A DNA stretch of 64,000 bases from a virus (IMGVR_UViG_3300020156_000022:32001-96000); one strand, 5' to 3'; positions 3,742 to 19,715 are shown, counted from the stretch's first letter. Program-made: numbers and translations. The notes: generated by a model not told the origin, from the letters alone.

Positions 3742-3951
3742 TCATGGAGCAATACCTGTGTCCCACTCGCATTGAGGATTTCCATCATCATCGCGGTCTT
3801 CATAATTCTCAAGCCAAGTTTCATAATGCTTGCCTGTCAGAATGCGAACTATTTGATCCAATATCCATTGCTTGTGGTGACTACCGTCAATTCCACCATA
3901 ATTCTCGATTAGGTCTAGTGTGCGCTCAATCTTACCTTCATCATCTGCCAT
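3742..3951 (-). CDS. hypothetical protein (start corrected to ATG 3951)
   Basis: MADDEGKIER...; the upstream part of the tracked ORF overlaps a tRNA-like RNA. Confidence 0.65.
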   Translation of the reverse strand: MADDEGKIERTLDLIENYGGIDGSHHKQWILDQIVRILTGKHYETWLENYEDRDDDGNPQCEWDTGIAP

Positions 3952-3952
3952 G

Positions 3953-4071
3953 CGTAACGTACAGGAATTGAACCTGTTCCTGATACTCGCTCCTATTTCG
4001 CTTACTAGGTCCAGGATAGGACTCTTCGGGTACTCTGTCGGCTTTCTCTGTGCTACCGTACACCACGTCAC
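3953..4071 (-). ncRNA. tRNA-like RNA with a long insert in place of the anticodon arm
   Basis: GTGACGT/ACGTTAC acceptor, D-like GTGTACGGTAGCAC, T arm ACAGG-TTCAATT-CCTGT, about 70 nt central insert. Confidence 0.6.
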
Positions 4072-4123
4072 TCACTAAGTTGATCAGACCTAGTGCAGCT
4101 AAAGGGTAGCTAATCCTTAAGCG

Positions 4124-4190
4124 TGGACATCAGTCGTATTGAACGACTCAGGACGTTCCCCGAAGGGAGCCCTGCAAACCTTGGATGCCC
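4124..4190 (-). ncRNA. mini tRNA-like RNA resembling the tmRNA tRNA-like domain
   Basis: GGGCATC/GATGTCC-A acceptor (G3.U70, A73), stemless D loop, CAGG/CCTG helix capped by a TTCG hairpin, T arm AGTCG-TTCAATA-CGACT. Confidence 0.55.
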
Positions 4191-4191
4191 T

Positions 4192-4231
4192 TGGTGCTGG
4201 TTTCAGACATATTAGGGAGGTCGTAACCAGC
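4192..4231 (-). ncRNA. acceptor-stem minihelix ending in ACCA
   Basis: GCTGGTT/AACCAGC-ACCA. Confidence 0.35.
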
Positions 4232-4254
4232 AAACTCCGTCCTCGTTGACTACT

Positions 4255-4283
4255 ACTCTAGCTTAGAGGTTAGTCCTTGTCAA
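4255..4283 (-). promoter_or_regulatory. sigma70/HrdB-type promoter
   Basis: TTGACA-N17-TAGAGT. Confidence 0.75.
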
Positions 4284-4426
4284 GAAGATAATTTGTGGCA
4301 TCGTACAGTTGATGCACCTAGTGTTGATCACAATGCCACCGCAGTACCTACAAAACATATTACATACCTGCGCAATTCCTACAGAAGCCCATAGGGCTTA
4401 AATCTGCACCACATCGATGACACATA

Positions 4427-4945
4427 TTAGCTGACATCGGATATGGTCTTTTGGATACCCTTAGCTTTTTTGTGGGGAGTATTCTCCTGTTCAGGCAGTG
4501 GATACTCTTCAAGTTCATTAACATAATGAAATGTCTCCGTGGCTATCCCAAATTTATCGGCCGCATCCCTACAACCTGTAGCACCGCTAGATCTGTCTTT
4601 AATAAAGGCTAGACATGCATCGGCATTTGATTTTTGAACCATTTGTAGATTACGAACTGGCCCAGCTCGCTTGCCATATTTTTTCCAGTCTGCCTGATAA
4701 ACAATCACTTTACACTTCAGTGTATTTCTAGCAAAAATATCAGCTAGCCTATCTGCCCCTCTAGGGCAACCACCATGGACTACAGTTAGCCACTCTGACA
4801 TAGGAATTTTACTGTATTCTGGGTTTTCCTGTAACCATTCGGCAATTGCTTGAATGATTCTATGCTTGATGCTTTCGAAATTGTCCCAGTCCCTTGAACC
4901 AGTAATAAGAATGACGAATTTTTTTCTCAAGGGCACCTCGGGCAT
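4427..4945 (-). CDS. SLOG/YspA-like (DUF2493) protein
   Basis: ILITGSRDW, VVHGGCPRGAD, ADWKKYGKRAGPVRN motifs. Confidence 0.8.
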   Translation of the reverse strand: MPEVPLRKKFVILITGSRDWDNFESIKHRIIQAIAEWLQENPEYSKIPMSEWLTVVHGGCPRGADRLADIFARNTLKCKVIVYQADWKKYGKRAGPVRNLQMVQKSNADACLAFIKDRSSGATGCRDAADKFGIATETFHYVNELEEYPLPEQENTPHKKAKGIQKTISDVS

Positions 4946-5166
4946 TTAAAATAACTCAACTTTAGACAGTCAGGGCATGTAGGTTTCTTGCAAGCAGGGC
5001 AAGGATCATCAATGCCACCATCAGTGTTTATCCATGCCACATTACATCTATTAACCTTGTATGCCCCACACAAAGTAATATGCGGATGACAACATAGTAG
5101 ATGGCAATATTTAATTTCATCGTTTGCCTGTAGCTCCTCTACAGGTCTTTCCTGTAAAGTTATCAT
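4927..5166 (-). CDS. Cys/His-rich small protein
   Basis: Multiple CxxC; ATG immediately follows tRNA-Glu. Confidence 0.6.
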   Translation of the reverse strand: MITLQERPVEELQANDEIKYCHLLCCHPHITLCGAYKVNRCNVAWINTDGGIDDPCPACKKPTCPDCLKLSYFKCPRCP

Positions 5167-5167
5167 G

Positions 5168-5239
5168 TAGTCCCAGAGAGAATTGAACTCTCTTCCTGAG
5201 GGTGAAAACCTCAGATCCTAACCAATAGACGATGGGACC
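5168..5239 (-). tRNA. tRNA-Glu(TTC)
   Basis: Cloverleaf; anticodon loop TTTTCAC. Confidence 0.9.
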
Positions 5240-5310
5240 AGGCTGATAGTCAAATTGCTTTTATCCTCGCGGACTATCATTCACGAGTACTTCACCCGGC
5301 TTCGTGTTCT

Positions 5311-5339
5311 AGTCTAGCTCAATCTTACTAGATTGTCAA
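5311..5339 (-). promoter_or_regulatory. sigma70/HrdB-type promoter
   Basis: TTGACA-N17-TAGACT. Confidence 0.75.
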
Positions 5340-5341
5340 GC

Positions 5342-5848
5342 TCAGTCAAAACTTCCAGAAGAACTACTTGTGTCAGAAGAACTGCTTGAAGATGAGCTGC
5401 TGCCATAGTCAGATCCACCAGAGCTATAACCTGTTGAAGGAGAAGATGGTGTATCTGAACTAGGAGTATATCCTGAGTAATTTGATGTAGTTGGTGCTGT
5501 ATAATTGTCAGTACTTGGAGTGTAATAGTCTGTAGTAGGCTCTACAGCCCAAGAGCTATCTACCTCAGGAACTTCTACTGCACCAAAACTTGAATCCTCT
5601 CGATCGTACCGATGTTTCGCGGCGCTAGGCTTTGAATTTACAGACTTTGGATATGCGTATGTAGCAGAATAAGTATGCGGCGCATTATCTGTTAGATTAC
5701 GCCTTGTTTCTAAGTCTGCACGTACTTGCTCACGAATAGCTGTTTGGACACTTACCGGCTTTGACTTCTGGCTACGACGCTGAAGGAAATAGCCTACAAC
5801 AAATAGCACTACAGCAATAACTAGAATTAGCAGAAAAATCTTGAACAA
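5342..5848 (-). CDS. membrane-anchored protein with a Ser/Gly-rich tail
   Basis: N-terminal TM helix, low-complexity C terminus. Confidence 0.7.
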   Translation of the reverse strand: MFKIFLLILVIAVVLFVVGYFLQRRSQKSKPVSVQTAIREQVRADLETRRNLTDNAPHTYSATYAYPKSVNSKPSAAKHRYDREDSSFGAVEVPEVDSSWAVEPTTDYYTPSTDNYTAPTTSNYSGYTPSSDTPSSPSTGYSSGGSDYGSSSSSSSSSDTSSSSGSFD

Positions 5849-5875
5849 AGCTGTTCCAATCTTAGTAGATATGAG

Positions 5876-5925
5876 TAACGTCCTGTTGCTGGAACCTATA
5901 CTAGCATTACAGCAACAGGACGTTA
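5876..5925 (-). terminator. long inverted repeat after the Ro60 gene
   Basis: TAACGTCCTGTTGCTG...CAGCAACAGGACGTTA; the loop holds an extended -10-like TGCTAGTAT. Confidence 0.55.
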
Positions 5926-5933
5926 AGGTAATT

Positions 5934-7553
5934 TCAGATTCGACCTGCTGAGAAGTCAGCGATCACTGACGGAGCGTTGGTGTCGAAACCTGCAACATTC
6001 AGGGTGCCGTTCACATCGTTAGGGTCGCCTACAGTAAACGGAGTAGCTGCCGCACCTACAACTACCAGCTTGGCGTCAATACCCATCTTCTGACGATAAT
6101 CCTTCAATGCACGCTCAGGCTTAATACGTCCAGCCCAAGTTTCGTTGTCGGTGTAAATCTGGAAGGTGTCAACTTCAATCTTGTTCTGCAATGCCCAAAC
6201 CATAGGCTGAGCAATATCAGTACCACCAAATGCCTGACCCTGCAACTTGCGGTTAACAGTAGCCAGATCCATCTTAGCAGTAATACCAAGATCACGGAAG
6301 GAAGTTGAGAAGCCCATGATCTGATACCAAGGCTCAACACGAGCAGTAACCATAGCCATAGCAGCAGTCACCTGTGCACAGCTTAGATCAATACCCAGTG
6401 CCGCAGAACCCATAGAACCAGAAACATCCAGAGCAAGCAAGGTTCGCTTGTTAGCAGGAGTAATGGACTTGAATGCAGCGTGGAATCCAGCATCCAAAGC
6501 ATCAGCAATTACAGGATTAGTTACCCAGTCCTTCTTACGAGTAATTGCATACCAACCATAAGACTCATTACGCTGCATCTGGCCCTCAGTATGAGTAACC
6601 AGAGCTAGAAGATACTGGATTGGGTGAAGACGAGTCTTCGCAATCATGTCAGAATCAACTAGAGCATTAGCAACTGCACGGGTAAACACCATATCGTTGA
6701 ATGCGCCAATACGAGAAAGGCGAGTAATCTGACGAACAAGTGCCTGACCCTTAAGCTGACCGTTAGCGAAAAGCTGCTTCCAAACCTCAGGCTCCTTAAG
6801 GAACTGAGTAGGAATAGTCTCCCAAGGAAGGTTAGTGAAACGCCCCAGAATATCGATAGCCTCAACAGAAGAAGAAGCAAGCTGCATCTTCTGAAAACCA
6901 TCGATAATGTCAGAATCGCCGTCTAGATCAATAAAGACAGGCTTACCAAGGATAAAATTACCTACACGTTGATCAACGCCAGTAGGGTGAGACAGGCGCA
7001 TAAGGTCACGCATAGTCCAACCATCACGCTGACGGTATTTAACAGCCTGGTACGCAAGCTGGTCAGCAGTCTTAGACTCAAACCACTTAGAGATTGCACG
7101 ACGCTTTGCACGACCCCAACCTCCAAGACCTTCGATGAAGGCAGCAAGCTGGTAAACGTGAGTAGCGATACGAGCAACCCTAGGAGCAGCCTCAACTACG
7201 GCCTGCTTAATACCCTGAACAGCCTCAGGCTCAGAAAGCATAAGAGCTAGGACGAAAATAGCAGCCTCGTTACGGTAGGCACGCCCCTTGTCGGACACGT
7301 CAATAACAGTAGCGAGAACAGTCTTAGGGTCCTTAGCGATCATCTTACGGATGAAGTCGACGTTCTGCTTAGTAAGATCCTTCTCACCCACGTAGTAGGT
7401 GCCCTTATCGGTACCAAGAATAAGGAAACGCTCAAGGCGCTGAATGTCAGATACTTCGAAAACGTAACCACCAGCGTTGTTCTTCACCTCATCGGAACGA
7501 GACTTCTCACGCTGAGTAGGTACAGCAGTAGAAAAATTCTTTAGTGCAGACAT
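5934..7553 (-). CDS. Ro60/Rsr TROVE-domain RNA-binding protein
   Basis: KNNAGGYVF..RLERFLILGT..GTYY, GGWGR, QAVKYRQRDGW, C-terminal vWA domain with DVSGSM MIDAS and TDNET; start moved to ATG 7553 (AGAAAGG RBS). Confidence 0.95.
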   Translation of the reverse strand: MSALKNFSTAVPTQREKSRSDEVKNNAGGYVFEVSDIQRLERFLILGTDKGTYYVGEKDLTKQNVDFIRKMIAKDPKTVLATVIDVSDKGRAYRNEAAIFVLALMLSEPEAVQGIKQAVVEAAPRVARIATHVYQLAAFIEGLGGWGRAKRRAISKWFESKTADQLAYQAVKYRQRDGWTMRDLMRLSHPTGVDQRVGNFILGKPVFIDLDGDSDIIDGFQKMQLASSSVEAIDILGRFTNLPWETIPTQFLKEPEVWKQLFANGQLKGQALVRQITRLSRIGAFNDMVFTRAVANALVDSDMIAKTRLHPIQYLLALVTHTEGQMQRNESYGWYAITRKKDWVTNPVIADALDAGFHAAFKSITPANKRTLLALDVSGSMGSAALGIDLSCAQVTAAMAMVTARVEPWYQIMGFSTSFRDLGITAKMDLATVNRKLQGQAFGGTDIAQPMVWALQNKIEVDTFQIYTDNETWAGRIKPERALKDYRQKMGIDAKLVVVGAAATPFTVGDPNDVNGTLNVAGFDTNAPSVIADFSAGRI

Positions 7554-7575
7554 TTGGCTTCTAGCCTTTCTGTTA

Positions 7576-7693
7576 GAACGAATATGTATGGATGATTGGG
7601 GTGCCCTACCATTTTGGGCGTCTGGTTGATCTGCGTACAGCCTACCAGACAGGGATCGAACCTGCAAGATAACCAATCAAGATCGACTCGTTC
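7576..7693 (-). ncRNA. Y RNA (YrlA-like, with permuted tRNA domain), copy 1
   Basis: 5' GAACGAGTCGA..GGTTATC / 3' ACATATTCGTTC stem; T arm GCAGG-TTCGATC-CCTGT, loop-closed acceptor, then D arm; directly upstream of Ro60. Confidence 0.85.
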
Positions 7694-7702
7694 AGAGTCA
7701 AG

Positions 7703-7830
7703 TGTTTCTGACAGGGTATGAACCTGCACATTTGTACTTCTTCAAAGATACTCCCCATAGCTAAGCTATAAGTTTCACTTCCGTACAAACCACCGAGGTT
7801 TCTCGGCTGCTATACTTTGCATACAGAAAC
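7703..7830 (-). ncRNA. tRNA-like RNA with a tetraloop hairpin in place of the anticodon arm and a very long variable arm
   Basis: GTTTCTG/CAGAAAC acceptor, GCCGAG-AAAC-CTCGGT hairpin, TTTGTAC..GTACAAA arm, T arm GCAGG-TTCATAC-CCTGT. Confidence 0.6.
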
Positions 7831-7833
7831 AAG

Positions 7834-7957
7834 TGCGGCGAAAAAAGGATTCGAACCTCTTCAGTGAGATGAGCTTAGCACGTCTAGTCCATGTTCGTCA
7901 ACATGCTAAAAACGTGCAGCCTATGACACTCATCCTAGTCTCATAAACCAAAGCCGC
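7834..7957 (-). ncRNA. tRNA-like RNA with a long central stem
   Basis: GCGGC/GCCGC-A acceptor, T arm AGAGG-TTCGAAT-CCTTT, nested GATGAG/CTCATC and GCACGT/ACGTGC helices. Confidence 0.55.
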
Positions 7958-7963
7958 AAGTAA

Positions 7964-8123
7964 TTGATGAATATGGGAGCGTAAACGAATAATATACAGA
8001 CGCTCTGCCATTGAGCTATACCCCGTTCATCTATATAGCGTTGTTTGCGCTAGTCGGGGCAGGAGGATTCGAACACTCCAACATTCTGTTTCCTCAGATA
8101 ATCGTATTACTTCGACTCATCAA
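7964..8123 (-). ncRNA. Y RNA (YrlA-like, with permuted tRNA domain), copy 2
   Basis: TTGATGAGTCGAAG..GATTATC / CATATTCATCAA; T arm, TGCCCCG/CGGGGTA acceptor, D arm TAGCTCAATGGCAGAGC. Confidence 0.85.
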
Positions 8124-8125
8124 AG

Positions 8126-8182
8126 TGTCCCCGGTTGGATTCGAACCAAACTTACACTACCAGGCGCTAACTGGCAAGGGAC
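8126..8182 (-). ncRNA. D-armless mini tRNA-like RNA
   Basis: GTCCCT/GGGGAC-A acceptor, GCCAG-TTAGCGC-CTGGT arm, TTCGAAT T loop. Confidence 0.5.
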
Positions 8183-8189
8183 TATAATT

Positions 8190-8357
8190 TTACTTTCTAG
8201 GCTTAGGCCAGCGATCAATTACTACCCTAAGATTTTCACATTCCTTCATTGCAGCATCAAAAGCTTTAGTATCTTTAGCTTCTCTCGCTTTTGCTAACTT
8301 TTCTCGTGCTTGCTGTAAAGCCTCTTGAGCTTCTCGTTTACTAGAATAGCTAGCCAA
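8190..8357 (-). CDS. small basic helical protein
   Basis: My translation (TTG start, GAGG RBS): MASYSSKREAQEALQQAREKLAK..., 55 aa. Confidence 0.55.
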   Translation of the reverse strand: MASYSSKREAQEALQQAREKLAKAREAKDTKAFDAAMKECENLRVVIDRWPKPRK

Positions 8358-8366
8358 GGTTACCTC

Positions 8367-8522
8367 TCAGAATAGATTAGCTACAGTTTGAGCGTTGTTA
8401 ACTTCCTTCTGAAGTTGTGCAATAGTAGCTGCGTCAGCCTTGTTCTTTTTAGCTGCTTTTAGTGCAGCCTTAGCCTCTGCAAGTTTCTGAAATGCTTCGT
8501 GGCTGCTTGTAATCTTAGCCAA
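8367..8522 (-). CDS. small Ala/Lys-rich helical protein
   Basis: My translation (TTG start, GGAG RBS): MAKITSSHEAFQKLAEAKAALK..., 51 aa. Confidence 0.55.
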   Translation of the reverse strand: MAKITSSHEAFQKLAEAKAALKAAKKNKADAATIAQLQKEVNNAQTVANLF

Positions 8523-8558
8523 TTTAAATCTCCACAAGATTAGTAATTAATTAATAGA

Positions 8559-8691
8559 AGTGAACATGTAAGTGAAAAACGGGTTTTTAAGTGCTGCCAT
8601 TACACCACCCGCCCATGAAATGGACGAGCTGGGATTCGAACCCAGACCTTTCCTTTATAAGAGAAGATAACCGTTATTCGTTCGGCTCACT
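8559..8691 (-). ncRNA. Y RNA (YrlA-like, with permuted tRNA domain), copy 3
   Basis: AGTGAGCCGAACG..GGTTATC / ACATGTTCACT; T arm CTGGG-TTCGAAT-CCCAG, closed acceptor, D arm TGGTGTAATGGCAGCAC. Confidence 0.85.
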
Positions 8692-8694
8692 AAG

Positions 8695-8771
8695 ATCTCC
8701 TGGCAGGACTCGAACCTGCATGAGGGGTGGCACTAATCCTCGCCAACGTCTACCAATTCCGCCACAGGAGA
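8695..8771 (-). ncRNA. Leu-like tRNA body with an aberrant (possibly pseudoknotted) anticodon arm
   Basis: Canonical acceptor, Leu-type D loop and T arm; centre TGGC-GAGG-ATTAGT-GCCA-CC-CCTC. Confidence 0.55.
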
Positions 8772-8778
8772 AAATTAC

Positions 8779-8844
8779 TTCGAATATGTGTTGATGATGG
8801 TTATTTTTATTTTCAGTAAGATAAACCAACATCTCCGACTCGAA
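8779..8844 (-). ncRNA. short Y RNA-like element (no tRNA domain), copy 4
   Basis: TTCGAGTCGGAG..GTTTATC / ACATATTCGAA, same stem motif as copies 1-3. Confidence 0.65.
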
Positions 8845-8847
8845 TTG

Positions 8848-8921
8848 TGTTTCTGGCAGGAATCGAACCTGCTACCTTCGCTGTATATATTACGCTGCTC
8901 AATCCAATGAGCTACAGAAAC
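8848..8921 (-). ncRNA. tRNA with a degenerate anticodon arm (identity undetermined)
   Basis: Perfect acceptor, D and T arms; anticodon region GCGTAATATATACAGC cannot form a 5 bp/7 nt arm. Confidence 0.6.
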
Positions 8922-8927
8922 ATATAA

Positions 8928-9014
8928 TCAGGATATAATTTAGACATCGGAAAGCCCAGACAACGCTGAGCGAATTCACCATTTGAAAGATAACCGATGA
9001 TCCTTCGACCCTGA
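8928..9014 (-). ncRNA. Y RNA-like element (no tRNA domain), copy 5
   Basis: TCAGGGTCGAAG..CATCGGTTATC / CCGATG..ATATCCTGA. Confidence 0.7.
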
Positions 9015-9020
9015 AACTTG

Positions 9021-9112
9021 AAGTTGAACATGTGTTTGAGATCAAACTATGCCACTATGGGCAATTAATTTTGGAGTAATTATCTGATAATCGATCTCAT
9101 TCGGCTCAACTT
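9021..9112 (-). ncRNA. Y RNA-like element (no tRNA domain), copy 6
   Basis: AAGTTGAGCCGAATGAGATCGATTATC / GATCTCA..ACATGTTCAACTT. Confidence 0.7.
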
Positions 9113-9113
9113 G

Positions 9114-9189
9114 TACTCCGTACCGGATTTGAACCGGTGCTCTTCTGATTGAGAATCAGATGTCTTAGACCAGACTAGACGAACGGAGC
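9114..9189 (-). tRNA. tRNA-Glu(CTC)
   Basis: Cloverleaf; loop TTCTCAA. Confidence 0.9.
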
Positions 9190-9224
9190 ATGTCTGTAAG
9201 CACTAGCTGCTTACAGGTATTACC

Positions 9225-9683
9225 TTACACTACCTTCAGGCTGTTGTCAACCGCATCATAAAAAGATCGACTATCTCCGTACAGATATGCATCAACAATT
9301 CGAGGCACAGTAAAAAAAGTATTGGCAGGAAGGGCATTCATATTAAACCAACGCCATTCTTCACACTTATCAGGTTCCATTACCTTAGGGTTGCCTGAAA
9401 GCCATATGCATACCATGCCAATATCAACATAATGCTTAGGCATGTATTCAGTCAGATTAATAGTGGAAATAGGGATAGGCCGAGTAGTCTTTACCTGAGA
9501 GCCAATTTCTTCTGCCATCTCACGGTAAGCTGTATCAGCAAACGACTCACCATACTCAAGTGTTCCTCCTGGAAGACCCCATTGCCCTGCACCATGAGAA
9601 CCCTTACGCTTACCTAGCAGGATAAGCTCCGGCATTCTTACTACAAGAACACCAATACCTACCTTGGTAATATTAGACATCAA
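9225..9683 (-). CDS. Nudix hydrolase
   Basis: Nudix box GGTLEYGESFADTAYREMAEEIG; EPDKCEEWRWF. Confidence 0.9.
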   Translation of the reverse strand: MMSNITKVGIGVLVVRMPELILLGKRKGSHGAGQWGLPGGTLEYGESFADTAYREMAEEIGSQVKTTRPIPISTINLTEYMPKHYVDIGMVCIWLSGNPKVMEPDKCEEWRWFNMNALPANTFFTVPRIVDAYLYGDSRSFYDAVDNSLKVV

Positions 9684-9970
9684 ACTCTCCGGCCTTTACA
9701 CCTTTAATAAATTCACGCCATTCGCGTTTATCAAAGCATACATAGTCTCCGTCAGAATCTCTGACAAAAACAACATCAGCTTCTATCAGAACTTCTACAC
9801 AGCAATCATTACCACAAAAAGAGGATTTCTTATGCTCAGGCATTATTTTTCTTTTCGAAAGATATTCTTAGGGCGATCTTGCCCTTTCTTAGTGCCACAA
9901 TTCCAGCACTTTTTCTCTTCTTCTCGTACCTCAGTATGGCAATATTTACATCGCCAGTGATTAAACGTAT

Positions 9971-10171
9971 TCACGTACCATCAGCTCCACAAAGGTTACA
10001 AGTTAATTGGGTACCGTTAGAATTCCAGGTATTCAGTTTATGCTCGCACATTACAGTCCAATAAGCACAAGCATCACATTCTTCAACCTGGATTGAACCC
10101 AGCCAGTTCTCCATATAAAAAACGGAGGCTGAAAAACCTCCGTGCTCATCATGTTCCTTCAGATAGGACAT
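9971..10171 (-). CDS. small Cys/His protein
   Basis: 66 aa with CxxC pairs; abuts the upstream ORF. Confidence 0.55.
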   Translation of the reverse strand: MSYLKEHDEHGGFSASVFYMENWLGSIQVEECDACAYWTVMCEHKLNTWNSNGTQLTCNLCGADGT

Positions 10172-10486
10172 TTACTTAATACCTAGTTCCTTCAGAATAA
10201 GGTCATGCTCTACTGCATGGAATACATGCTCAGGAATCTTAACTCGATAGACCATCTTTTCGAATTCGTAGCTAATACTCATCTCTAATTCTTGATGCAT
10301 ACCATCGCTATCGAGAAAAGCATTAGCTGCTTGGAGACGCTTAGTAATTTCGGGCAAAGCTTCAGAACGAACTTTTACCCATCGACCCTTATAAGTTCTG
10401 TCAAAAATGCCGAAGCCATTAGTGAATAACCCTATAACTAGGATAATTCCTAAGACTACTATTAGGGTTTCTAACCAATCAGACAT
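10172..10486 (-). CDS. membrane-anchored hypothetical protein (start corrected to ATG 10486)
   Basis: N-terminal TM helix; the upstream part of the tracked ORF lies in tRNA-Leu. Confidence 0.65.
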   Translation of the reverse strand: MSDWLETLIVVLGIILVIGLFTNGFGIFDRTYKGRWVKVRSEALPEITKRLQAANAFLDSDGMHQELEMSISYEFEKMVYRVKIPEHVFHAVEHDLILKELGIK

Positions 10487-10487
10487 G

Positions 10488-10569
10488 TACTCACGGTGGG
10501 ATTCGAACCCACAATCCTTTCGGCGCAGCATTTTAAGTGCTGAGTGTATACCAGTTCCACCACGCGAGC
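10488..10569 (-). tRNA. tRNA-Leu(TAA)
   Basis: Cloverleaf with long variable arm; loop CTTAAAA. Confidence 0.9.
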
Positions 10570-10571
10570 AT

Positions 10572-10668
10572 TGGTTTTGTAATCAGGAATAGTATCAGCA
10601 TACGTTCTGACGTTTACCTGAACCAGACCTATCAACAAAGGCCCGTTCTAACATTAAACTATTACAAA
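10572..10668 (-). ncRNA. tRNA-like RNA with an expanded T arm and encoded CCA
   Basis: TTTGTAA/TTACAAA-ACCA, D arm TAGTTTAATGTTAGAAC, 10 nt anticodon-like loop, TCAGG/CCTGA stem enclosing a hairpin instead of a T loop. Confidence 0.5.
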
Positions 10669-10670
10669 AG

Positions 10671-10746: not shown

Positions 10747-10751
10747 ATTGT

Positions 10752-12058: not shown

Positions 12059-12070
12059 TTGTTACCTACT

Positions 12071-12099: not shown

Positions 12100-12351
12100 C
12101 AGGTTTCTTGTTTGATTTAGTTAGATAATTGATAATGTATACTTTGCTGTCCGTAACAGGTTTACGTAGAATTCTGCCTTTAAGTTGCTCAGTATTCATA
12201 GCACTTATCTTTTTTCCTGTTTCGACGATATTTCCTGCGATTTTCATGCTTTGATGCTGCACTAGAACGACGAAGCTCAAGGAGCTGACGCTGTTCCTCA
12301 GCAGTGTATTTACGCTTGTAGTTCATCATCAGCTCCTTTCTCATGCTGTCT

Positions 12352-12380
12352 ACACTAGCGGATCAGGTTCTGGCTGTCAA
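12352..12380 (-). promoter_or_regulatory. sigma70/HrdB-type promoter (leaderless downstream ATG)
   Basis: TTGACA-N17-TAGTGT; ATG 7 nt later. Confidence 0.65.
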
Positions 12381-13026: not shown

Positions 13027-13031
13027 CTTTC

Positions 13032-13976: not shown

Positions 13977-14164
13977 TAATCCTTAACATCAGAAGGATCA
14001 ACGAAAATTACCTCAGCCTCAGGATCTTCGTCCCTTACCTTAGCTAGTTTAACAGGGTAATCAATAGTCTTCAACCACTTACCCAATCTGTGCTGCACAG
14101 TAAAACCTGCTATGATATTATCCGAAGTGTCTAGCACTATCCATAATGATGTGGCTCTAGCCAT
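13970..14164 (-). CDS. hypothetical protein
   Basis: 64 aa ORF, GGAG RBS. Confidence 0.55.
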   Translation of the reverse strand: MARATSLWIVLDTSDNIIAGFTVQHRLGKWLKTIDYPVKLAKVRDEDPEAEVIFVDPSDVKDYC

Positions 14165-14454
14165 GTTGTTCTCCCATATAAGTATTATTACCTATCTGCC
14201 GGATTGAGCCCATCTATTAGTGTACAGGTTGGCTTGCAATACTCCTTTTCTCCAACTTTGCACACAGGACACTTACCTTTATTCGGCCTTAGCTTATACC
14301 CATTGATTTCTTTTAATGGCTTTCTAAATGGATTCTTTATTAGCGTCTTTCTATTTTGCAATCAGGGCAAACATACATGTCACTAGAATTTCCACTTTTG
14401 TGCTTGGCGCAAGCTACTAATATTTTTACAGTCAAGACATCTCCCTAAACAAAC

Positions 14455-14482
14455 ATAGCCACCTGAATATTCAGGTGGCTAT
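14455..14482. terminator. inverted repeat/terminator
   Basis: ATAGCCACCTGAA-TA-TTCAGGTGGCTAT. Confidence 0.6.
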
Positions 14483-14646
14483 TCTCAAAGTTCTGCTTTC
14501 CACGTCCTACGTCTGGCAATTTGCTTATCTTTAGGCATTTCAGTCTCCCTAGATAGGTCTGCCACAAGCTAGACAAATAAGGTTTCCTCGCTTATCCATC
14601 ATAACTGTCCTACCGTGGTCTTTGCAAGCATCATGCTTACCCATGC

Positions 14647-14748
14647 CTAGACCTCGATAAACCCTGTACCTTTACAGCCTTTACAAGAACCTTTAGCTGT
14701 TTGCCCGTTATTACAGCCCGCACAACGCAACTTATTGCCTTTTTGCAT
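14647..14748 (-). CDS. zinc-finger microprotein
   Basis: My translation: MQKGNKLRCAGCNNGQTAKGSCKGCKGTGFIEV. Confidence 0.5.
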   Translation of the reverse strand: MQKGNKLRCAGCNNGQTAKGSCKGCKGTGFIEV

Positions 14749-14825
14749 TCGCTTCTTTAAAGGATACCTGTTATCTCGCGGTGCGACCTCGTGTGGGGGT
14801 GTATTACCCTCTTTATAGCGAGCCA

Positions 14826-15005
14826 TTAGGATTTATCTCCCTTATGGGAACCCTTATCACGGGAATGGTCTGGCTTACTGCCACCACCAGTAGTTCCTCT
14901 ACGACTAGTGTTAGTTCCTTTAGTCCAACGCCTTTCCACTTTCTGGGCATATTCCTCAAGCTGATCGGCAGACAGGTTCTTCTTATCGTCATCCTTTTTA
15001 GTCAT
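14826..15005 (-). CDS. charged microprotein
   Basis: My translation: MTKKDDDKKNLSADQLEEYAQKVERRW..., 59 aa; ATG directly after tRNA-Arg. Confidence 0.5.
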   Translation of the reverse strand: MTKKDDDKKNLSADQLEEYAQKVERRWTKGTNTSRRGTTGGGSKPDHSRDKGSHKGDKS

Positions 15006-15006
15006 G

Positions 15007-15079
15007 CACCCCTGACAGGATTCGAACCTGCGATTTACAGTTTAGAAGACTGTTGAGTTATCCGCTACTCTACAGGGGC
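15007..15079 (-). tRNA. tRNA-Arg(TCT)
   Basis: Cloverleaf; loop CTTCTAA. Confidence 0.9.
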
Positions 15080-15128
15080 ATTAAATTAGTTTTGAGTTTA
15101 AAGCGACCAAAACTATAAACAAACTTCG

Positions 15129-15197
15129 TGCATCGAGCGGGTTCGAACCGTATCTCTGGGTATGACCCCAGCGCATTTCCCTAATGCTACTCGATAC
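15129..15197 (-). tRNA. atypical tRNA (CAT in a 6 nt loop; 8 bp acceptor, short T stem)
   Basis: GTATCGAG/CTCGATGC, CTGGG-GTCATA-CCCAG, CGG-TTCGAAC-CCG. Confidence 0.5.
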
Positions 15198-15346
15198 TAA
15201 CATGGTGCCAGCCATGCTTTTACCATTACGAAAGACCCGGCTGCTACCGCATACCACACTTAATGCTGGCACACTAAGCTGATCACGTTCGTACTCTCGG
15301 ATTCCGTTTCTTAGCGTACGAAAGTCACCCGAGTATAACCAAACTG

Positions 15347-15418
15347 TACGCCGAGAGAATTACGATATCTCGTCCCGCGAGTTAAAAGCTCGCTGCTCTG
15401 CCTCTGAGCTACCGGCGC
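15347..15418 (-). tRNA. tRNA-Lys(TTT)
   Basis: Loop CTTTTAA; atypical T loop ATCGTAA. Confidence 0.8.
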
Positions 15419-15463
15419 TAGTCTTACAGAATACTACCAAGAACGTCTACATTTTGCTGAAAG

Positions 15464-15536
15464 TACGCCATAAGGGACTCGAACCCTTGACCCACCGATT
15501 AAGAGTCGGTTGTCTCTGCCGCTGAGCTAATGGCGC
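15464..15536 (-). tRNA. tRNA-Lys(CTT)
   Basis: Cloverleaf; loop CTCTTAA. Confidence 0.9.
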
Positions 15537-15637
15537 TTGGTGAGATATTTGTTAGCCTCTCACTGGCATCAGCCTCACCCATTTTACATCACGGAGGACA
15601 TGATGTCTAGCTACTAGAAAGTTGACATGACATACCT

Positions 15638-15692
15638 GCACCAGCTAGGAATCGAACCCAGTATGCCACTGAACAGGTTTGCAACCCTGTTT
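15638..15692 (-). pseudogene. 3'-half tRNA fragment (GCA anticodon arm plus T arm)
   Basis: ACAGG..TTGCAAA..CCTGT and CTGGG-TTCGATT-CCTAG; no D arm or 5' acceptor strand. Confidence 0.4.
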
Positions 15693-15694
15693 TG

Positions 15695-15766
15695 TAGGGG
15701 CAGGGAATTTCGAAATCCCGACCTGCGGTATGTAACACCGCTGCTCTGCCTCTGAGCTACGCCCCC
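15695..15766 (-). tRNA. tRNA-Val(TAC)
   Basis: Cloverleaf; loop GTTACAT. Confidence 0.85.
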
Positions 15767-16114
15767 AAGCTACGTTTGAATTTATACCATCCAAACTGTT
15801 TTGCCGTTCTTCTTTTATGGCAGTTAGCACATCGTACCACACACTTCTCAATTTCTGCAAGTACTCGATCCCATTTAATTCCGTTTCTTACAGATTTACC
15901 TATATCAAAACTTTTTTCTTCTGGAATTAGAAGGCTAGAACCGACTAAGGAAACTAGCCTTGATTGGCTTGCTGATAAAGCTTTACTAGCTGAACCTTCA
16001 TTATGGGGTACTTTATCTGACAGTTTAGGGTATTGTATGAACTACCAGTTAACACAAACTAAGTCTAATGGTACATCCTTAGATTTTATGTGTGCTTGAA
16101 CCTGGCAGGATCTA

Positions 16115-16144
16115 ACTATAACTTAGGACTGCTTCCCCTGTCAA
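16115..16144 (-). promoter_or_regulatory. sigma70/HrdB-type promoter
   Basis: TTGACA-N18-TATAGT. Confidence 0.7.
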
Positions 16145-16216
16145 GCCAGGCTCGGCTGCCACTATTACTGCATATCGTTAAGCCTGTGCTAGGTCATTCG
16201 CCTACTTGCAGCATTG

Positions 16217-16246
16217 AGCTTATAGTTATCATACGTGCTTTGTCAA
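16217..16246 (-). promoter_or_regulatory. sigma70/HrdB-type promoter
   Basis: TTGACA-N18-TAAGCT. Confidence 0.6.
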
Positions 16247-16312
16247 CAGCCTTACTGTATACGCGCGCCGTTCGACGTAGTTTATTACATTGTGGAATGT
16301 GATATACTTGCG

Positions 16313-16384
16313 TGGAGAAATAGGGAGTTGAACCCTATCTTGAACTTTGCAAAAGTCCCGTGCAACCCTTAACACTTTATCCCC
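16313..16384 (-). tRNA. tRNA-Ala(TGC)
   Basis: Loop TTTGCAA; G3.U70. Confidence 0.85.
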
Positions 16385-16436
16385 ATAGTAAGCGCAAGTG
16401 CGTCCAGTTTGCCCGGTCCTCGCGCTTACATCTACT

Positions 16437-16465
16437 ACTTTACATCGTCTTGGCTAGCTTGTCAA
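16437..16465 (-). promoter_or_regulatory. sigma70/HrdB-type promoter
   Basis: TTGACA-N17-TAAAGT. Confidence 0.75.
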
Positions 16466-16632
16466 CCCTCTAGACTCATAGAATTTGCCAGAAGGATGTA
16501 GCCCTTTGCTGCTTCAGCCAATGCTTGAAGTCGATTCGCTTGAGCTTCACTCAAGTTGTAGCCCTGCGAGTCTTTTACCTTCTTCAGGCATTCCTCTGCT
16601 GACCTGAGTGCTTCATTTCGTGTCATGCACCT

Positions 16633-16661
16633 AGCCTACAGGACTCTGACAGGATCGTCAA
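16633..16661 (-). promoter_or_regulatory. sigma70/HrdB-type promoter (leaderless downstream ATG)
   Basis: TTGACG-N17-TAGGCT; ATG 6 nt later. Confidence 0.65.
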
Positions 16662-16674
16662 GGCTACGTATCTG

Positions 16675-16878
16675 TTATTTCTTAAATCTTCCTCGGCCTA
16701 TAGCTCGTTGACTAATCAAATCAAGTAACTGCTCACGAATATCCATATTACGATTAAGAATTTTACGAGTATTAGCGATAGTAGTCTGACAGTTTGCTAT
16801 GGCCGTCTCGACATCTAATAACTCTTCAGACAACTCTTTATCTGACCAATCACCGTAATCTGGTTGTTCAGTAAGCAT
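16675..16878 (-). CDS. hypothetical coiled-coil protein
   Basis: 67 aa ORF after dcd. Confidence 0.6.
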   Translation of the reverse strand: MLTEQPDYGDWSDKELSEELLDVETAIANCQTTIANTRKILNRNMDIREQLLDLISQRAIGRGRFKK

Positions 16879-16882
16879 TTAT

Positions 16883-17488
16883 CTATTCCTTTTCATTTGG
16901 GTAAACATCATAGATCTTAAAATTATCAAAGGATCGGCTTATAGTTGGCCCAGCCTGGTACTGATAGTGCGATCCAGCTGCTCTTGAACCATACAACAAA
17001 GTAGTCGGCTCTGGTAAGTGGTAGAAGCCAAGTTGACTAACTTTCATACCTGGCCATAACAACAAAGGCATAGTTCCACTATTACTTAATTCTAAGGTAA
17101 TTTGCCCTTCAAATCCTGGATCAATAAACCCCGCAGTAGCATGAATAACCAACCCTAGCCTGCCTAAAGAACTTTTACCCTCAAGCTTAGCGGCTATGTT
17201 AGCACCTAATGCAATAGTTTCAAAGGTACAACCTAGCACAAATGCTCCTGGCTCTAATACAAATGCAGAACCCTTTGGAACAAATACATCTGTAAAGTAA
17301 TCAGTTGAGTCTTCTTTAGGATCTACCAACGGCGCGTCCGCAGGGGAATCAAATTGTAACTGTACCTTAAACTCAGGAGAAAGTGTCATATCATAACTGG
17401 CAGGCTGAATTAGCTCTTCCCTGAAAGGCTGGATGATAATATTTTGGAATCTAATCTCTTCAAGAATTCCTCTATTAGATACTAGCAT
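16883..17488 (-). CDS. dcd: dCTP deaminase
   Basis: IQPASYD, EGKSSLGRLGL, HATAGFIDPGFEGQITLEL. Confidence 0.95.
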   Translation of the reverse strand: MLVSNRGILEEIRFQNIIIQPFREELIQPASYDMTLSPEFKVQLQFDSPADAPLVDPKEDSTDYFTDVFVPKGSAFVLEPGAFVLGCTFETIALGANIAAKLEGKSSLGRLGLVIHATAGFIDPGFEGQITLELSNSGTMPLLLWPGMKVSQLGFYHLPEPTTLLYGSRAAGSHYQYQAGPTISRSFDNFKIYDVYPNEKE

Positions 17489-17714
17489 GATCTTCTCTCC
17501 ATTCTAGTTTCACCTTGCCGCTTTCATGGAAAGCAAGATCAAGTATGGTATTATTATATACCTTTACCAGATCAATCTCAATCTTTTTACCTAAAGGTAC
17601 ATATTTTCTTAGCAATGCCGCTGCGACAGCCTCATAGATTCTTACTTTTTCTTCAAGCACATCAAAAGACCTGGATGCTAGGTACTCATCCAGGTCTATA
17701 AATTCATTTGACAT
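17475..17714 (-). CDS. hypothetical protein
   Basis: 79 aa ORF with AAAGG RBS. Confidence 0.6.
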   Translation of the reverse strand: MSNEFIDLDEYLASRSFDVLEEKVRIYEAVAAALLRKYVPLGKKIEIDLVKVYNNTILDLAFHESGKVKLEWREDHASI

Positions 17715-17805
17715 TACTTACCTTTCTCAAGAAAATAGGAGCCGCATCGACAAACAACTTGCGGATCTTTGCCTACAAGTTATCCTGGAGGTTGGCTCCT
17801 ATTTG

Positions 17806-18156
17806 CTAGTATGCCTTATATTCAGCATGTCCAGCACTGACCATTCGATCATTGATGCTAGGAGTTTTAGTAGGGTCTTCTCCCCAAAGCCATAACTCTC
17901 CTAAATATCGGCCATACTTTTCTTTTTTATCCTTGGTAGTCATAACATATAGATACTTAAAACTACCATCAGGATTAGTAAGTAATTTCAATAACCATGC
18001 CCTGGCATTCTTACCGGCTTGTGTGGGTAGCTCAGGAGCATTAATTCTGTTGAATCTAATATGCATGTCTTGAAGAAGATCACAACCAGCGTCTCGCCTT
18101 ATTGTGATTGTATCAGCATCATAGACAGTTAAGATTTCAGCAGGGTAATCATACAT
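17806..18156 (-). CDS. thermonuclease (SNase-like)
   Basis: VYDADTI, IRFNRINAPE, KYGRYL, INDRMVSAGHA; start moved to ATG 18156 (GGAG RBS). Confidence 0.85.
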   Translation of the reverse strand: MYDYPAEILTVYDADTITIRRDAGCDLLQDMHIRFNRINAPELPTQAGKNARAWLLKLLTNPDGSFKYLYVMTTKDKKEKYGRYLGELWLWGEDPTKTPSINDRMVSAGHAEYKAY

Positions 18157-18278
18157 ATTTATCTCCCATCGTATAAGAGATAAATCGGTAATAATTGAGG
18201 GTTGCAACTTCCAGTACAGCCGTGCAGCTTTCCCGGTTAACCAGATAGCTTTCTCACCTGTTCGTGGACCTCAATAAG

Positions 18279-18357
18279 AGCAGATAGGCGGAATCGAACC
18301 GCAGACATAAGACGCCTTTTGCAGAGGCGCGGCTATCACCAATAACCTTCTATCTGC
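18279..18357 (-). tRNA. tRNA-Cys(GCA)
   Basis: Loop CTGCAAA; U73. Confidence 0.8.
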
Positions 18358-18392
18358 ACGTAAAGAATAATATTATTCTTTACTAATAGAAT

Positions 18393-18503
18393 TTACTTTT
18401 TACCAGTACCTTTACATGCATTACAATCTATAGGAGGAAGACTATTACGTTCAAAAAACCCTCTACCTCTACATGACATACATATTTCTTTTTCTTTTTC
18501 CAT
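18393..18503 (-). CDS. DnaJ-type zinc-finger microprotein
   Basis: My translation: MEKEKEICMSCRGRGFFERNSLPPIDCNACKGTGKK (two CxxCxGxG). Confidence 0.6.
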   Translation of the reverse strand: MEKEKEICMSCRGRGFFERNSLPPIDCNACKGTGKK

Positions 18504-18504
18504 G

Positions 18505-18579
18505 AGCCACCAGAGAGAATCGAACTCTCGACCTTTTCCGTACCAAGGAAACACTCTGACCAAACTGAGCTATGGCGGC
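18505..18579 (-). tRNA. tRNA-Thr(GGT)
   Basis: Cloverleaf; loop TTGGTAC. Confidence 0.9.
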
Positions 18580-18666
18580 AAAACTAGTTTTTAGAAGCAG
18601 CCATTTCCCTTCCGGGCGGTACTGTGGAGAGACCCTTAGTTTCAAGGCTGAACTAGAAACCTTCCG

Positions 18667-18741
18667 AGCGGCCAGTGTGGCTCGAACACACTACTCTCTG
18701 CTTACGAGGCAGGGGCTTTAACCTGATTAAGCTACAGCCGC
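18667..18741 (-). tRNA. tRNA-Thr(CGT)
   Basis: Cloverleaf; loop CTCGTAA. Confidence 0.85.
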
Positions 18742-18745
18742 AATA

Positions 18746-18904
18746 TTAGTTAGACAATCTTTTTTGTTTTGTGCCGCAAGGCACATGAGTAACTACCTTA
18801 TTCTTGATTCTCCATCCACGAGTGCCTTTGCAATTGTCGCACACCCTAGGACCATTCTCATCAATGAGTCTTCCTCCGATTGTTGCATTATCTGTATTTG
18901 CCAT
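18746..18904 (-). CDS. zinc-binding microprotein
   Basis: My translation: MANTDNAT..CDNCKG..HVPCG, 52 aa; fills the gap between two tRNAs. Confidence 0.55.
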   Translation of the reverse strand: MANTDNATIGGRLIDENGPRVCDNCKGTRGWRIKNKVVTHVPCGTKQKRLSN

Positions 18905-18905
18905 G

Positions 18906-18976
18906 AGCGGAAGACGGGAATCGAACCCGCGACAAAACGTTGGAAGCGTCTTATGTTACCTCTACACCACATCCGC
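18906..18976 (-). tRNA. tRNA-Gly(TCC)
   Basis: Cloverleaf; loop CTTCCAA. Confidence 0.9.
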
Positions 18977-18978
18977 AT

Positions 18979-19061
18979 TGGTGCAACCGTACAGCCTGCG
19001 AGAATCTATTAGGCACGATTCTCATTGTCCTAGTGCCTGTAGGGACCAGCTTATCGGTTGC
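18979..19061 (-). ncRNA. ACCA-ended tRNA-like RNA with an internal pseudoknot
   Basis: GCAACCG/CGGTTGC-ACCA; TACAG/CTGTA; GAGAATC/GATTCTC hairpin whose loop GTGC can pair with upstream GCAC. Confidence 0.5.
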
Positions 19062-19145
19062 GTTGAGAAGTTTTCTAAGGCATAAGCCTCGCATCTGAGC
19101 GGCCACTCTAGCATTAGCGCCCACCTATTCTCCCAAATCTCCGCG

Positions 19146-19216
19146 AGCGGCTAACGAGAATCGAACTCGTGCTTAAACCTTGGCAAGGTTTCGTGATACC
19201 ATTTCACTATAGCCGC
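19146..19216 (-). tRNA. tRNA-Gly(GCC)
   Basis: Cloverleaf; loop TTGCCAA. Confidence 0.9.
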
Positions 19217-19225
19217 AATATTTAC

Positions 19226-19342
19226 TTATAGAAGTTTCTTGTCTATATAACCATTCTTACACTTGCCAGGACAATCTTTTATTTTGCCTGCTTTAACTAT
19301 AAAGCCCCTACCTCTACATGTCAAGCACATGACCAAGGCCAT
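19226..19342 (-). CDS. zinc-finger microprotein
   Basis: My translation: MALVMCLTCRGRGFIVKAGKIKDCPGKCKNGYIDKKLL. Confidence 0.55.
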   Translation of the reverse strand: MALVMCLTCRGRGFIVKAGKIKDCPGKCKNGYIDKKLL

Positions 19343-19498
19343 AAAAGTTAACCTCTTTTTCTAGGAGTATTCTTTACTCTTTTAATAAAGTCTTGTTGAT
19401 TTTTCTTTGAAGTAGTTGCCAACAACGCAGCCGCATCTTCAAATTTCTTTTCTCTCAGAAGAGAGGCAGCAGTAAGATTAGCTTTTTTATCTAAACTG

Positions 19499-19639
19499 CT
19501 ATGCTTTCCCATTGCGCTTAGCCTCCAAGTATTCTGCTTCTGAAAGCTTTGCTTTTGCAAGGTTTCTTATAGAAGGAGTCTTAGCTGCTTTACGTGTAGC
19601 TTTATTTAATTTTGTCCAAGGATCTTTTTTCTTAAGCAT
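19499..19639 (-). CDS. basic microprotein
   Basis: My translation: MLKKKDPWTKLNKATRKAAK..., 46 aa; ATG directly after tRNA-Asp. Confidence 0.5.
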   Translation of the reverse strand: MLKKKDPWTKLNKATRKAAKTPSIRNLAKAKLSEAEYLEAKRNGKA

Positions 19640-19640
19640 G

Positions 19641-19715
19641 CGCGACTGAAGGGATTTGAACCCTCGATCTCTTGATTGACAATCAAGTGCTTTAACCAGG
19701 CTAAGCTACAACCGC
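19641..19715 (-). tRNA. tRNA-Asp(GTC)
   Basis: Cloverleaf; loop TTGTCAA; G73. Confidence 0.9.

Follow-up and report, generated by a model that had tools for sequence, protein, structure and literature searches.

Start codons set directly behind tRNA genes in a probable soil actinophage suggest leaderless mRNAs released by tRNA 3' maturation

We analysed a stretch of 64,000 nucleotides of viral DNA (IMGVR_UViG_3300020156_000022:32001-96000, hereafter the window), which comprises bases 32001-96000 of a 104,982-bp virus record (42.8% G+C). Nearly all of the sizeable open reading frames (ORFs) of the record lie on the minus strand. ARAGORN detected 29 transfer RNA (tRNA) genes in the 105-kb genome, 25 of them within the window, and every one lies on the minus strand. 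Behind six of the tRNAs of the window, and behind one tRNA-like element, the three bases that follow C74 are the ATG of an ORF, the A of which occupies tRNA position 75. We refer to this arrangement as a junction. Two further junctions, at Ser-gct and Ile-tat, lie outside the window, which brings the genome total to eight tRNAs plus the element; the chance expectation is about 0.5 ATG junctions per genome. An earlier reading of the window from its sequence only (the sequence-only reading) had pointed to seven such ATGs, at 3951, 5166, 10486, 15005, 18503, 18904 and 19639, and all seven were found at position 75. The junctions of the window are made up of the following features.

3952..4071, minus strand: tRNA-like element: acceptor stem of 7 bp, T arm with a loop of 7 nucleotides, G73 and C74 (read from the sequence)
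3742..3951, minus strand: 69-codon ORF, ATG directly after C74 of the tRNA-like element
5167..5239, minus strand: tRNA-Glu(ttc), A73-C74 (ARAGORN; Rfam 54 bits)
4927..5166, minus strand: 79-codon Cys-rich ORF, starts at position 75 of tRNA-Glu(ttc)
10487..10569, minus strand: tRNA-Leu(taa), A73-C74 (ARAGORN; Rfam 53.9 bits)
10172..10486, minus strand: 104-codon ORF with an N-terminal hydrophobic segment, starts at position 75 of tRNA-Leu(taa)
15006..15079, minus strand: tRNA-Arg(tct), G73-C74 (ARAGORN; Rfam 66.5 bits)
14826..15005, minus strand: 59-codon basic ORF, starts at position 75 of tRNA-Arg(tct)
18504..18579, minus strand: tRNA-Thr(ggt), T73-C74 (ARAGORN; Rfam 65.5 bits)
18393..18503, minus strand: 36-codon CxxC...CxxCxGxG zinc-finger-like ORF, starts at position 75 of tRNA-Thr(ggt)
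18905..18976, minus strand: tRNA-Gly(tcc), T73-C74 (ARAGORN; Rfam 60.2 bits)
18746..18904, minus strand: 52-codon ORF with tRNAs on both flanks, starts at position 75 of tRNA-Gly(tcc)
19640..19715, minus strand: tRNA-Asp(gtc), G73-C74 (ARAGORN; Rfam 70.6 bits)
19499..19639, minus strand: 46-codon basic ORF, starts at position 75 of tRNA-Asp(gtc)

The last base given by ARAGORN was taken as position 74 because the Rfam tRNA model stops one base earlier, at the discriminator (N73). Position 74 is a C in 25/25 tRNAs of the window and in 29/29 of the genome. Position 75 is A in 15 of the genome tRNAs, T in nine, G in five and C in none, so CCA is nowhere encoded. The remark of the sequence-only reading that these genes end with the discriminator plus one C, and lack CCA, therefore extends to every tRNA. 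We found no match to a CCA-adding enzyme (PF01743) or to a metallo-beta-lactamase-type RNase Z (PF12706) in the present phage (handle G000, about 77% complete according to CheckV) or in its relatives G001, G002, G003 and G006; hence, host enzymes must mature the CCA-less tRNAs. The universal C74 and the absent C75 fit a cleavage determinant kept on every tRNA, with an ATG that would be added behind C74 only where a gene follows.

The relatives were gathered from IMG/VR via an SbcC-like exonuclease and the DNA polymerase, and their tRNA regions were then fetched. Junctions were counted in a clade of four genomes (G000, G001, G002 and G006); G003 is a more distant relative. An ATG stands at offset 0 after C74 in 8 of the 29 tRNAs of G000, 8 of 33 in G001, 5 of 33 in G002 and 3 of 24 in G006. 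Pooled over the clade, this gives 24 of 119 tRNAs, and each of the 24 ATGs begins an ORF that is 25 codons long or more. Offsets 1-60 average 2.3 ATGs, against 24 at offset 0 (binomial P ~1e-17). Offsets 1-9 hold two ORF starts in total, and ORF starts return from about offset 10. For a background, we scanned an IMG/VR sample with a T-arm pattern that ends at C74 and leaves the following bases unconstrained. This retrieved 452 tRNAs, of which 266 encode CCA and 166 have C74 without CCA. An ATG occupied position 75 in two of these 166, both on one contig (Fisher P versus the clade = 2.4e-8). The relatives thus display the enrichment of ATG at position 75 that the sequence-only reading had proposed to look for.

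Cultured Streptomyces phages carry the same arrangement. Comrade (NC_048728) has two ATG junctions and one GTG junction for 31 tRNAs, and LukeCage (NC_048723) two ATG and three GTG junctions for 42. Curated coding sequences (CDSs) start at position 75 in both phages. In Comrade, gene 180 lies behind tRNA-Glu(ttc) and gene 118, with a GTG start, behind tRNA-Phe; in LukeCage, gene 217 lies behind tRNA-Leu(gag), gene 225 behind tRNA-Leu(caa) and gene 171, with a GTG start, behind tRNA-Lys(ttt). A second IMG/VR scan was preselected for C-ATG and is unsuited to rates; among the matches listed were several-junction contigs, namely L075 (4/8), which is related to Stanwilliamsviridae, L037 (3/7, 29% G+C) and L093 (3/4). 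One class of matches is an artefact. In another phage clade (IMG/VR contigs L083, L068, L031 and L067) most tRNAs end in N73-C-A-T, and wherever two tRNAs are spaced by two nucleotides, G1 of the next tRNA completes a spurious ATG. L031 carries a suppressor-type tRNA with a cta anticodon. Since C-A-T plus G1 mimics ATG, counts of tRNA-ATG junctions must exclude such cases.

The ORFs behind the junctions evolve as genes. The ORF at 3951 is 78% identical from Met1 to its homologue in G001, with a proportion of nonsynonymous differences (pN) of 0.14 versus 0.76 for synonymous ones (pS). The Glu ORF and its counterpart behind the same tRNA in G001 share 63% identity across residues 1-79 (pN 0.22 vs pS 0.80). 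In both of these pairs, synonymous differences have reached saturation and nonsynonymous ones are few. For the Asp ORF, identity to its counterpart behind tRNA-Asp in G001 is 55%, counted from Met1. Between the junction ORFs of G005 and G006, the ratio of nonsynonymous to synonymous rates (dN/dS) is about 0.07-0.09, and the ORF behind Arg-tct starts with ATG in G005 and with GTG in G006. Because pN lies far below pS and the alignments begin at Met1, we conclude that the junction ORFs are real genes under purifying selection, as they had looked to the sequence-only reading. The ATG/GTG exchange, together with purifying selection from Met1, identifies the junction triplet as their start codon. 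The window junction ORFs contain no alternative ATG near the N terminus, except for the Thr ORF (codon 9), and that one also lacks a Shine-Dalgarno (SD) sequence. Pfam has no family for six of the seven window junction ORFs, and the seventh, the Thr ORF, has a weak match to DnaJ_CXXCXGXG under the cut-off.

The tRNA content turns over between relatives, and some of these protein families change tRNA partner. The Arg ORF shares 40% identity, from Met1 onwards, with a G002 ORF located behind Lys-ttt, likewise at position 75, and the ORF behind Thr-ggt is related to a G001 ORF behind tRNA-Gly(tcc), again at position 75. The Leu ORF has no homologue among the junction ORFs of the relatives. The same families are thus found behind different tRNAs and always at position 75; hence, the junction is re-created as the tRNA content changes, and this points to selection on the junction itself. 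Start codon usage at offset 0 (ORFs of at least 25 codons) is 24 ATG, 4 GTG and 2 TTG, compared with 34, 12 and 7 in genes with a strong SD. The A content of codons 2-8 is 0.425 in junction ORFs and 0.342 in SD-led genes (P = 0.002).

The tRNA-like element spans 120 nucleotides and has a non-tRNA-like interior of about 75 nucleotides in place of the D and anticodon arms. Its minimum free energy (MFE) fold forms the acceptor and T stems, while the overall fold is no more stable than those of shuffled sequences (z = -0.13). In the G001 homologue (L027), compensatory changes preserve the two stems, and G73-C74-ATG is retained. Covariation with G001 therefore supports the acceptor and T stems, and these parts of the element only. 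The element matched no family in an Rfam search.

Some features of the other tRNAs deserve mention. Position 76 is a T in 51-63% of the tRNAs in each of G000, G001, G002, G003 and G006, and position 75 is a G in 27/37 tRNAs of G003. The trailers thus appear to have a clade-specific consensus, C74-D75-T76, even without a following gene, which is possibly a processing determinant. ARAGORN reported three genes as "tRNA-???" on the minus strand (8694-8771, 8847-8921 and 15128-15197), with anticodon loops of eight or six nucleotides (gatt, atat, ca). Instead of decoding, these may serve as tRNA-shaped spacers for processing. The tRNA-Cys(gca) at 18278-18357 (minus strand) is 80 nucleotides long, and its best Rfam match is tRNA-Sec (39 bits, for a cut-off of 47) and not the general tRNA model. 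Two tRNA-Met genes at 11908-12058 (minus strand) are one base apart (C74, t, then G1), and a cut after C74 combined with RNase P cleavage would release a spacer of one nucleotide.

Most genes of the phage have conventional initiation signals. An anti-SD duplex of -6 kcal/mol or lower, 4-20 nucleotides upstream, precedes 64% of the called starts (ORFs of at least 70 codons) versus 12% of random positions, and the usual SD motifs are GGAGG or AAGGAG. At the 24 junction starts the mean duplex energy is -1.2 kcal/mol (-3.9 for the Glu ORF and -2.4 for the Leu ORF), and the bases just before them belong to the 3' strand of the acceptor stem, which is paired; the SD position is thus indeed occupied by a paired stem, as had been claimed. 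The heads of operons, read from the sequence, follow another pattern: a TTGACA-like hexamer, 17-18 nucleotides, TAnnnT, 6-7 nucleotides and ATG. The example at 12344 is given below, and similar arrangements end at the ATGs 1630, 16626, 23037, 28871 and 33158. All six ATGs that had been described as lying 6-7 nucleotides after a -10 box are present, and the promoter-proximal genes look leaderless. In the single case of the 12344 ORF, an AAGGAG within codons 2-4 may leave a leadered alternative. The promoter-like and terminator-like features of the tRNA region are as follows.

12344..12380, minus strand: leaderless-type start, TTGACA, 17 nucleotides, TAGTGT, 7 nucleotides, ATG (read from the sequence)
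5339-5311, minus strand: promoter-like site TTGACA-17-TAGACT upstream of tRNA-Glu(ttc)
15609-15581, minus strand: promoter-like site upstream of the Lys-Lys-?-Arg tRNA run
19324-19296, minus strand: promoter-like site upstream of the Gly-gcc/Gly-tcc/Thr/Thr/Cys tRNA run
20135-20107, minus strand: promoter-like site upstream of two Asp tRNAs
16465-16437, 16144-16115, 4283-4255 and 3364-3336, minus strand: promoter-like sites TTGACA-17-TAnnnT in the tRNA region, on the gene strand
10143-10122, minus strand: intrinsic-terminator-like hairpin and T tract that closes the Leu-ORF unit
14455-14482, minus strand: intrinsic-terminator-like hairpin and T tract that closes the Arg-ORF unit

The density of promoter-like sites (3336-20135) suggests many short transcription units, each headed by tRNAs. 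Each tRNA and its junction ORF lie on the same strand with a spacing of 0 nucleotides, no terminator separates them, and promoter-like sites are found upstream of the tRNA runs. Because the promoter-like sites are in that position, the tRNAs and the junction ORFs are most simply read as co-transcribed.

The likely host matters for the fate of such transcripts. The DNA polymerase is closest to that of Microbacterium phage Magritte (38% identity), the Ro-like RNA-binding protein is 57% identical to the Ro-like proteins of Streptomyces phages Belfort, Comrade and Gilson, and an HNH gene is similar at the DNA level to Streptomyces phages Forrest and Jada. Searching a phage collection for near-identical DNA gave short matches only. 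A search of sequencing runs found DNA of the record in five DNA runs, all soil metagenomes, and in no RNA runs. Since the relatives of the polymerase, the Ro-like protein and the HNH gene are actinophages and the source is soil, the host is most likely a soil actinobacterium. The earlier guess of an actinobacterial host fits the nearest cultured relatives overall, which are Streptomyces and Microbacterium phages.

Cleavage by a hydrolytic endonuclease leaves a 5' phosphate. In Streptomyces coelicolor, where CCA is absent from 53 of the 65 tRNA genes, most CCA-encoding tRNAs are cut "between the Cs", as judged from 5'-monophosphate ends mapped by differential RNA sequencing (dRNA-seq) (PMC4681348). 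Table S4 of that paper shows each mapped site in its sequence context. By our own count of this table, 35 single-site tRNAs and 2 multiple-site tRNAs, out of 44, are cut immediately behind the C next to the discriminator, independently of whether CCA is encoded. The same cut after C74 was found by dRNA-seq in Propionibacterium acnes, although this bacterium has no obvious tRNase Z (PMC3848588); hence, the cutting enzyme need not be RNase Z. The mapped sites are the 5' ends of downstream products without a triphosphate (PMC4681348, PMC3848588). The sequence-only reading had left a cut after N73 or after C74 as options, of which these published cuts favour the latter.

A 5'-terminal AUG or GUG reportedly suffices for translation according to a study of leaderless genes in mycobacteria. 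For S. coelicolor, 264 leaderless mRNAs are listed, and leaderless transcripts are described as common in mycobacteria (PMC4633059). In Caulobacter, each added 5' nucleotide approximately halves leaderless initiation and AUG is strongly preferred (PMC8459731). Leaderless translation in Escherichia coli is reported to need a 5' phosphate (Giliberti et al. 2012, as cited in PMC9031893). In that 2022 review of leaderless translation, the contested MazF route is the sole one listed (PMC9031893).

Taken together, these elements suggest the following mechanism. Small protein genes would be co-transcribed with tRNAs in such a way that the A of the ATG is tRNA position 75, and a host endonuclease would cut the precursor right after C74. 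The tRNA half, ending in N73-C74-OH, would be completed by the CCA-adding enzyme of the host. The downstream half would start with 5'-P-AUG, i.e., it would be a perfectly leaderless mRNA, which could be translated by the leaderless pathway widely used by actinobacteria. The tRNA would then replace a promoter plus SD, or an SD plus spacer, and each cut would yield one tRNA and one translatable message. The single-base precision of the junction, the void at offsets 1-9 and the bias towards ATG would be expected because extra 5' bases halve leaderless initiation and AUG is the preferred codon. Junction geometry, excess, conservation and turnover, the coding nature of the ORFs and the lack of SD and of internal promoters are directly supported by the data; the cut and the translation are what we infer from sequence and from analogy, and we regard the release of 5'-P-AUG messages by a cut after C74 as probable. 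The wider claim calls for more caution. We lean towards the view that, in a lineage of soil actinophages, the maturation of tRNA 3' ends serves to initiate translation. This would give bacterial viruses an equivalent of the tRNA punctuation of mitochondria, and would be the first case in bacteria of leaderless mRNAs that arise naturally and constitutively from RNA processing.

We considered four other explanations of the junctions. The ATGs might reflect chance or misplaced tRNA boundaries and not be start codons, given that the ends reported by ARAGORN are heuristic and that short ORFs are common in AT-rich DNA. The Rfam model places the discriminators at the same positions, the offset statistics have P ~1e-17, the background is 2/166, none of the 24 ATGs leads into an ORF shorter than 25 codons, and the ORFs are under purifying selection (pN vs pS), which refutes this explanation. 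Alternatively, a promoter inside each tRNA gene might start transcription at the ATG and produce primary leaderless transcripts, in line with the -10-proximal ATGs that the phage has elsewhere. We scanned the tRNA 3' ends of the 24 junctions for a TAnnnT hexamer ending 5-8 nucleotides upstream of the ATG and found none (0/24). The 3' halves of tRNAs are moreover constrained by tRNA structure. We rejected internal promoters for lack of a correctly placed -10 hexamer, and consider them very improbable.

The flush arrangement could also be a by-product of compaction or of gain and loss of tRNA cassettes. The ORFs would then be translated by other means, or the expression of tRNA and ORF would be mutually exclusive because exonucleolytic trimming of the tRNA would destroy the start of the ORF. 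The turnover of tRNAs between relatives is compatible with this, as are the tight packing of the genes, some of whose stops overlap the next start (e.g., TAATG at the end of the Arg ORF), and the many "C-ATG" of the other IMG/VR clade that turned out to be C-A-T plus G1 of the next tRNA. Yet, compaction predicts a spread of short offsets and not a spike at 0 with a void at 1-9. It does not account for junctions rebuilt after a change of the upstream tRNA, nor for the ATG/GTG exchange and the purifying selection from Met1 that mark the triplet as a start, and there is no alternative start or SD nearby. We hold compaction, including its mutually exclusive variant, to be unlikely. Slightly less credible to us, and also unlikely, is translation from the uncut tRNA-mRNA precursor, with the folded tRNA acting as a 5' stabiliser or as a platform for SD-independent initiation. 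The junction ORFs do lack an SD, and structured 5' elements are generally known to shield mRNAs from 5'-end-dependent decay. However, just two unpaired bases (N73 and C74) separate the AUG from a 12-bp coaxial acceptor/T helix, and ribosome structure implies that mRNA entering the 30S subunit must be single-stranded on the upstream side of the P site. The preference for a single base and the empty offsets 1-9 fit a rule set by a 5' end better than a platform, and a functional tRNA requires a cut at this very place, where Streptomyces makes one.

Release of the message by a cut after C74 thus remains the reading we prefer, and several observations weigh against it. G003 (0/37) and Magritte (high G+C; 1/26) have almost no ATG junctions despite the same C74 ends; hence, C74 alone does not imply a junction. 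The junction rate in cultured Streptomyces relatives is merely 5-12% of tRNAs. Punctuation on the 3' side is mostly absent, as the junction ORFs other than Gly and Thr run into more ORFs or into a terminator. The exact filling of gaps between tRNAs claimed by the sequence-only reading accordingly holds for the Gly ORF (stop 4 nucleotides before tRNA-Thr(cgt)) and roughly for the Thr ORF (35 nucleotides before tRNA-Cys), and fails for the others. The MFE of the first 33 nucleotides is not significantly weaker in junction ORFs than in SD-led genes (P = 0.055). Finally, a 5'-monophosphate end might make such mRNAs short-lived.

Two genes neighbouring the tRNAs complete the description of the region. 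A gene at 20770-22488 (minus strand) encodes a collagen-like, glycine-rich protein of 572 residues that matches minor tail or tail-fibre proteins of many actinophages; as a query, it returned low-complexity matches only. This gene adjoins the tRNA region and is distant from the main structural block. The stretch 5937-7691 (minus strand) holds the Ro60-like gene (PHROG 850) and, directly upstream of it at 7575-7691, a weak Rfam match to YrlA, a Y RNA-like family (29.8 bits, E = 0.011, under the gathering score).

If the proposed mechanism holds, tRNA genes of phages do a second job, in which they replace ribosome-binding sites and license the translation of the next gene. RNA processing would join promoters as a source of leaderless mRNAs in bacteria, the unexplained actinobacterial cut after C74 would have a downstream product with a function, and the universal N73-C74 ends of these phage tRNAs would have a selective reason. 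Annotation rules and gene callers that insist on an SD, or that bar genes from touching tRNAs, will miss or misplace such genes. Since the junction also occurs in cultured Streptomyces phages, the idea can be tested directly. A search of the literature, with most subscription journals outside its reach, retrieved no paper that reports phage leaderless mRNAs punctuated by tRNAs or generated by processing.

The closest parallel is the tRNA punctuation of animal mitochondrial transcripts, reportedly described by Ojala, Montoya and Attardi in 1981. Reviews of the subject include PMC4394434 and PMC11469412. As in mitochondria, CCA-less tRNAs lie flush against coding regions in polycistronic units and there is no SD at the junctions. 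There, tRNA excision defines the 5' end of mRNAs without a leader, and the same would happen here, so that a hallmark so far of mitochondria would extend to bacterial viruses. Unlike mitochondria, this is a bacterial virus that relies on host enzymes, and as a rule the ORFs are punctuated on their 5' side alone. About a quarter of the tRNAs are so used, beside ordinary SD-led and promoter-leaderless genes, and the cut would fall after C74 and not after the discriminator. The phage system is, in addition, known from sequence alone.

Among bacterial viruses, the Stanwilliamsviridae phages Comrade and LukeCage also have large arrays of N73-C74 tRNAs among small ORFs, a Ro-like protein and CDSs at position 75, whereas their junctions are rarer, their G+C content is 47-48% instead of 43%, and their core genes are distantly related to those of the present phage. 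S. coelicolor and P. acnes share the N73-C74 context, with or without encoded CCA, and in these bacteria position 75 becomes the first base of the downstream product, which bears a 5' monophosphate; tRNA repair is presumed to proceed via the CCA-adding enzyme (PMC4681348, PMC3848588). Both papers deal with tRNA maturation only and make no connection between the downstream fragment and translation. Leaderless mRNAs from actinobacteria and from phage repressor genes such as lambda cI resemble the predicted messages in the lack of SD and the preference for AUG (GUG is tolerated in actinobacteria), and they have a 5'-terminal start codon and are sensitive to one extra 5' base (PMC4633059, PMC4681348, PMC9031893). 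They are, however, primary transcripts with a 5' end set by the promoter, whereas here the end would come from processing and carry a monophosphate. An endonuclease also creates leaderless from leadered RNA in the E. coli MazF model (Vesper et al. 2011, discussed in PMC9031893). MazF is a stress toxin that cuts at ACA, and according to that review the model was not reproduced by other laboratories. In the phage lineage, by contrast, the cut would be a housekeeping step of tRNA maturation and would act constitutively.

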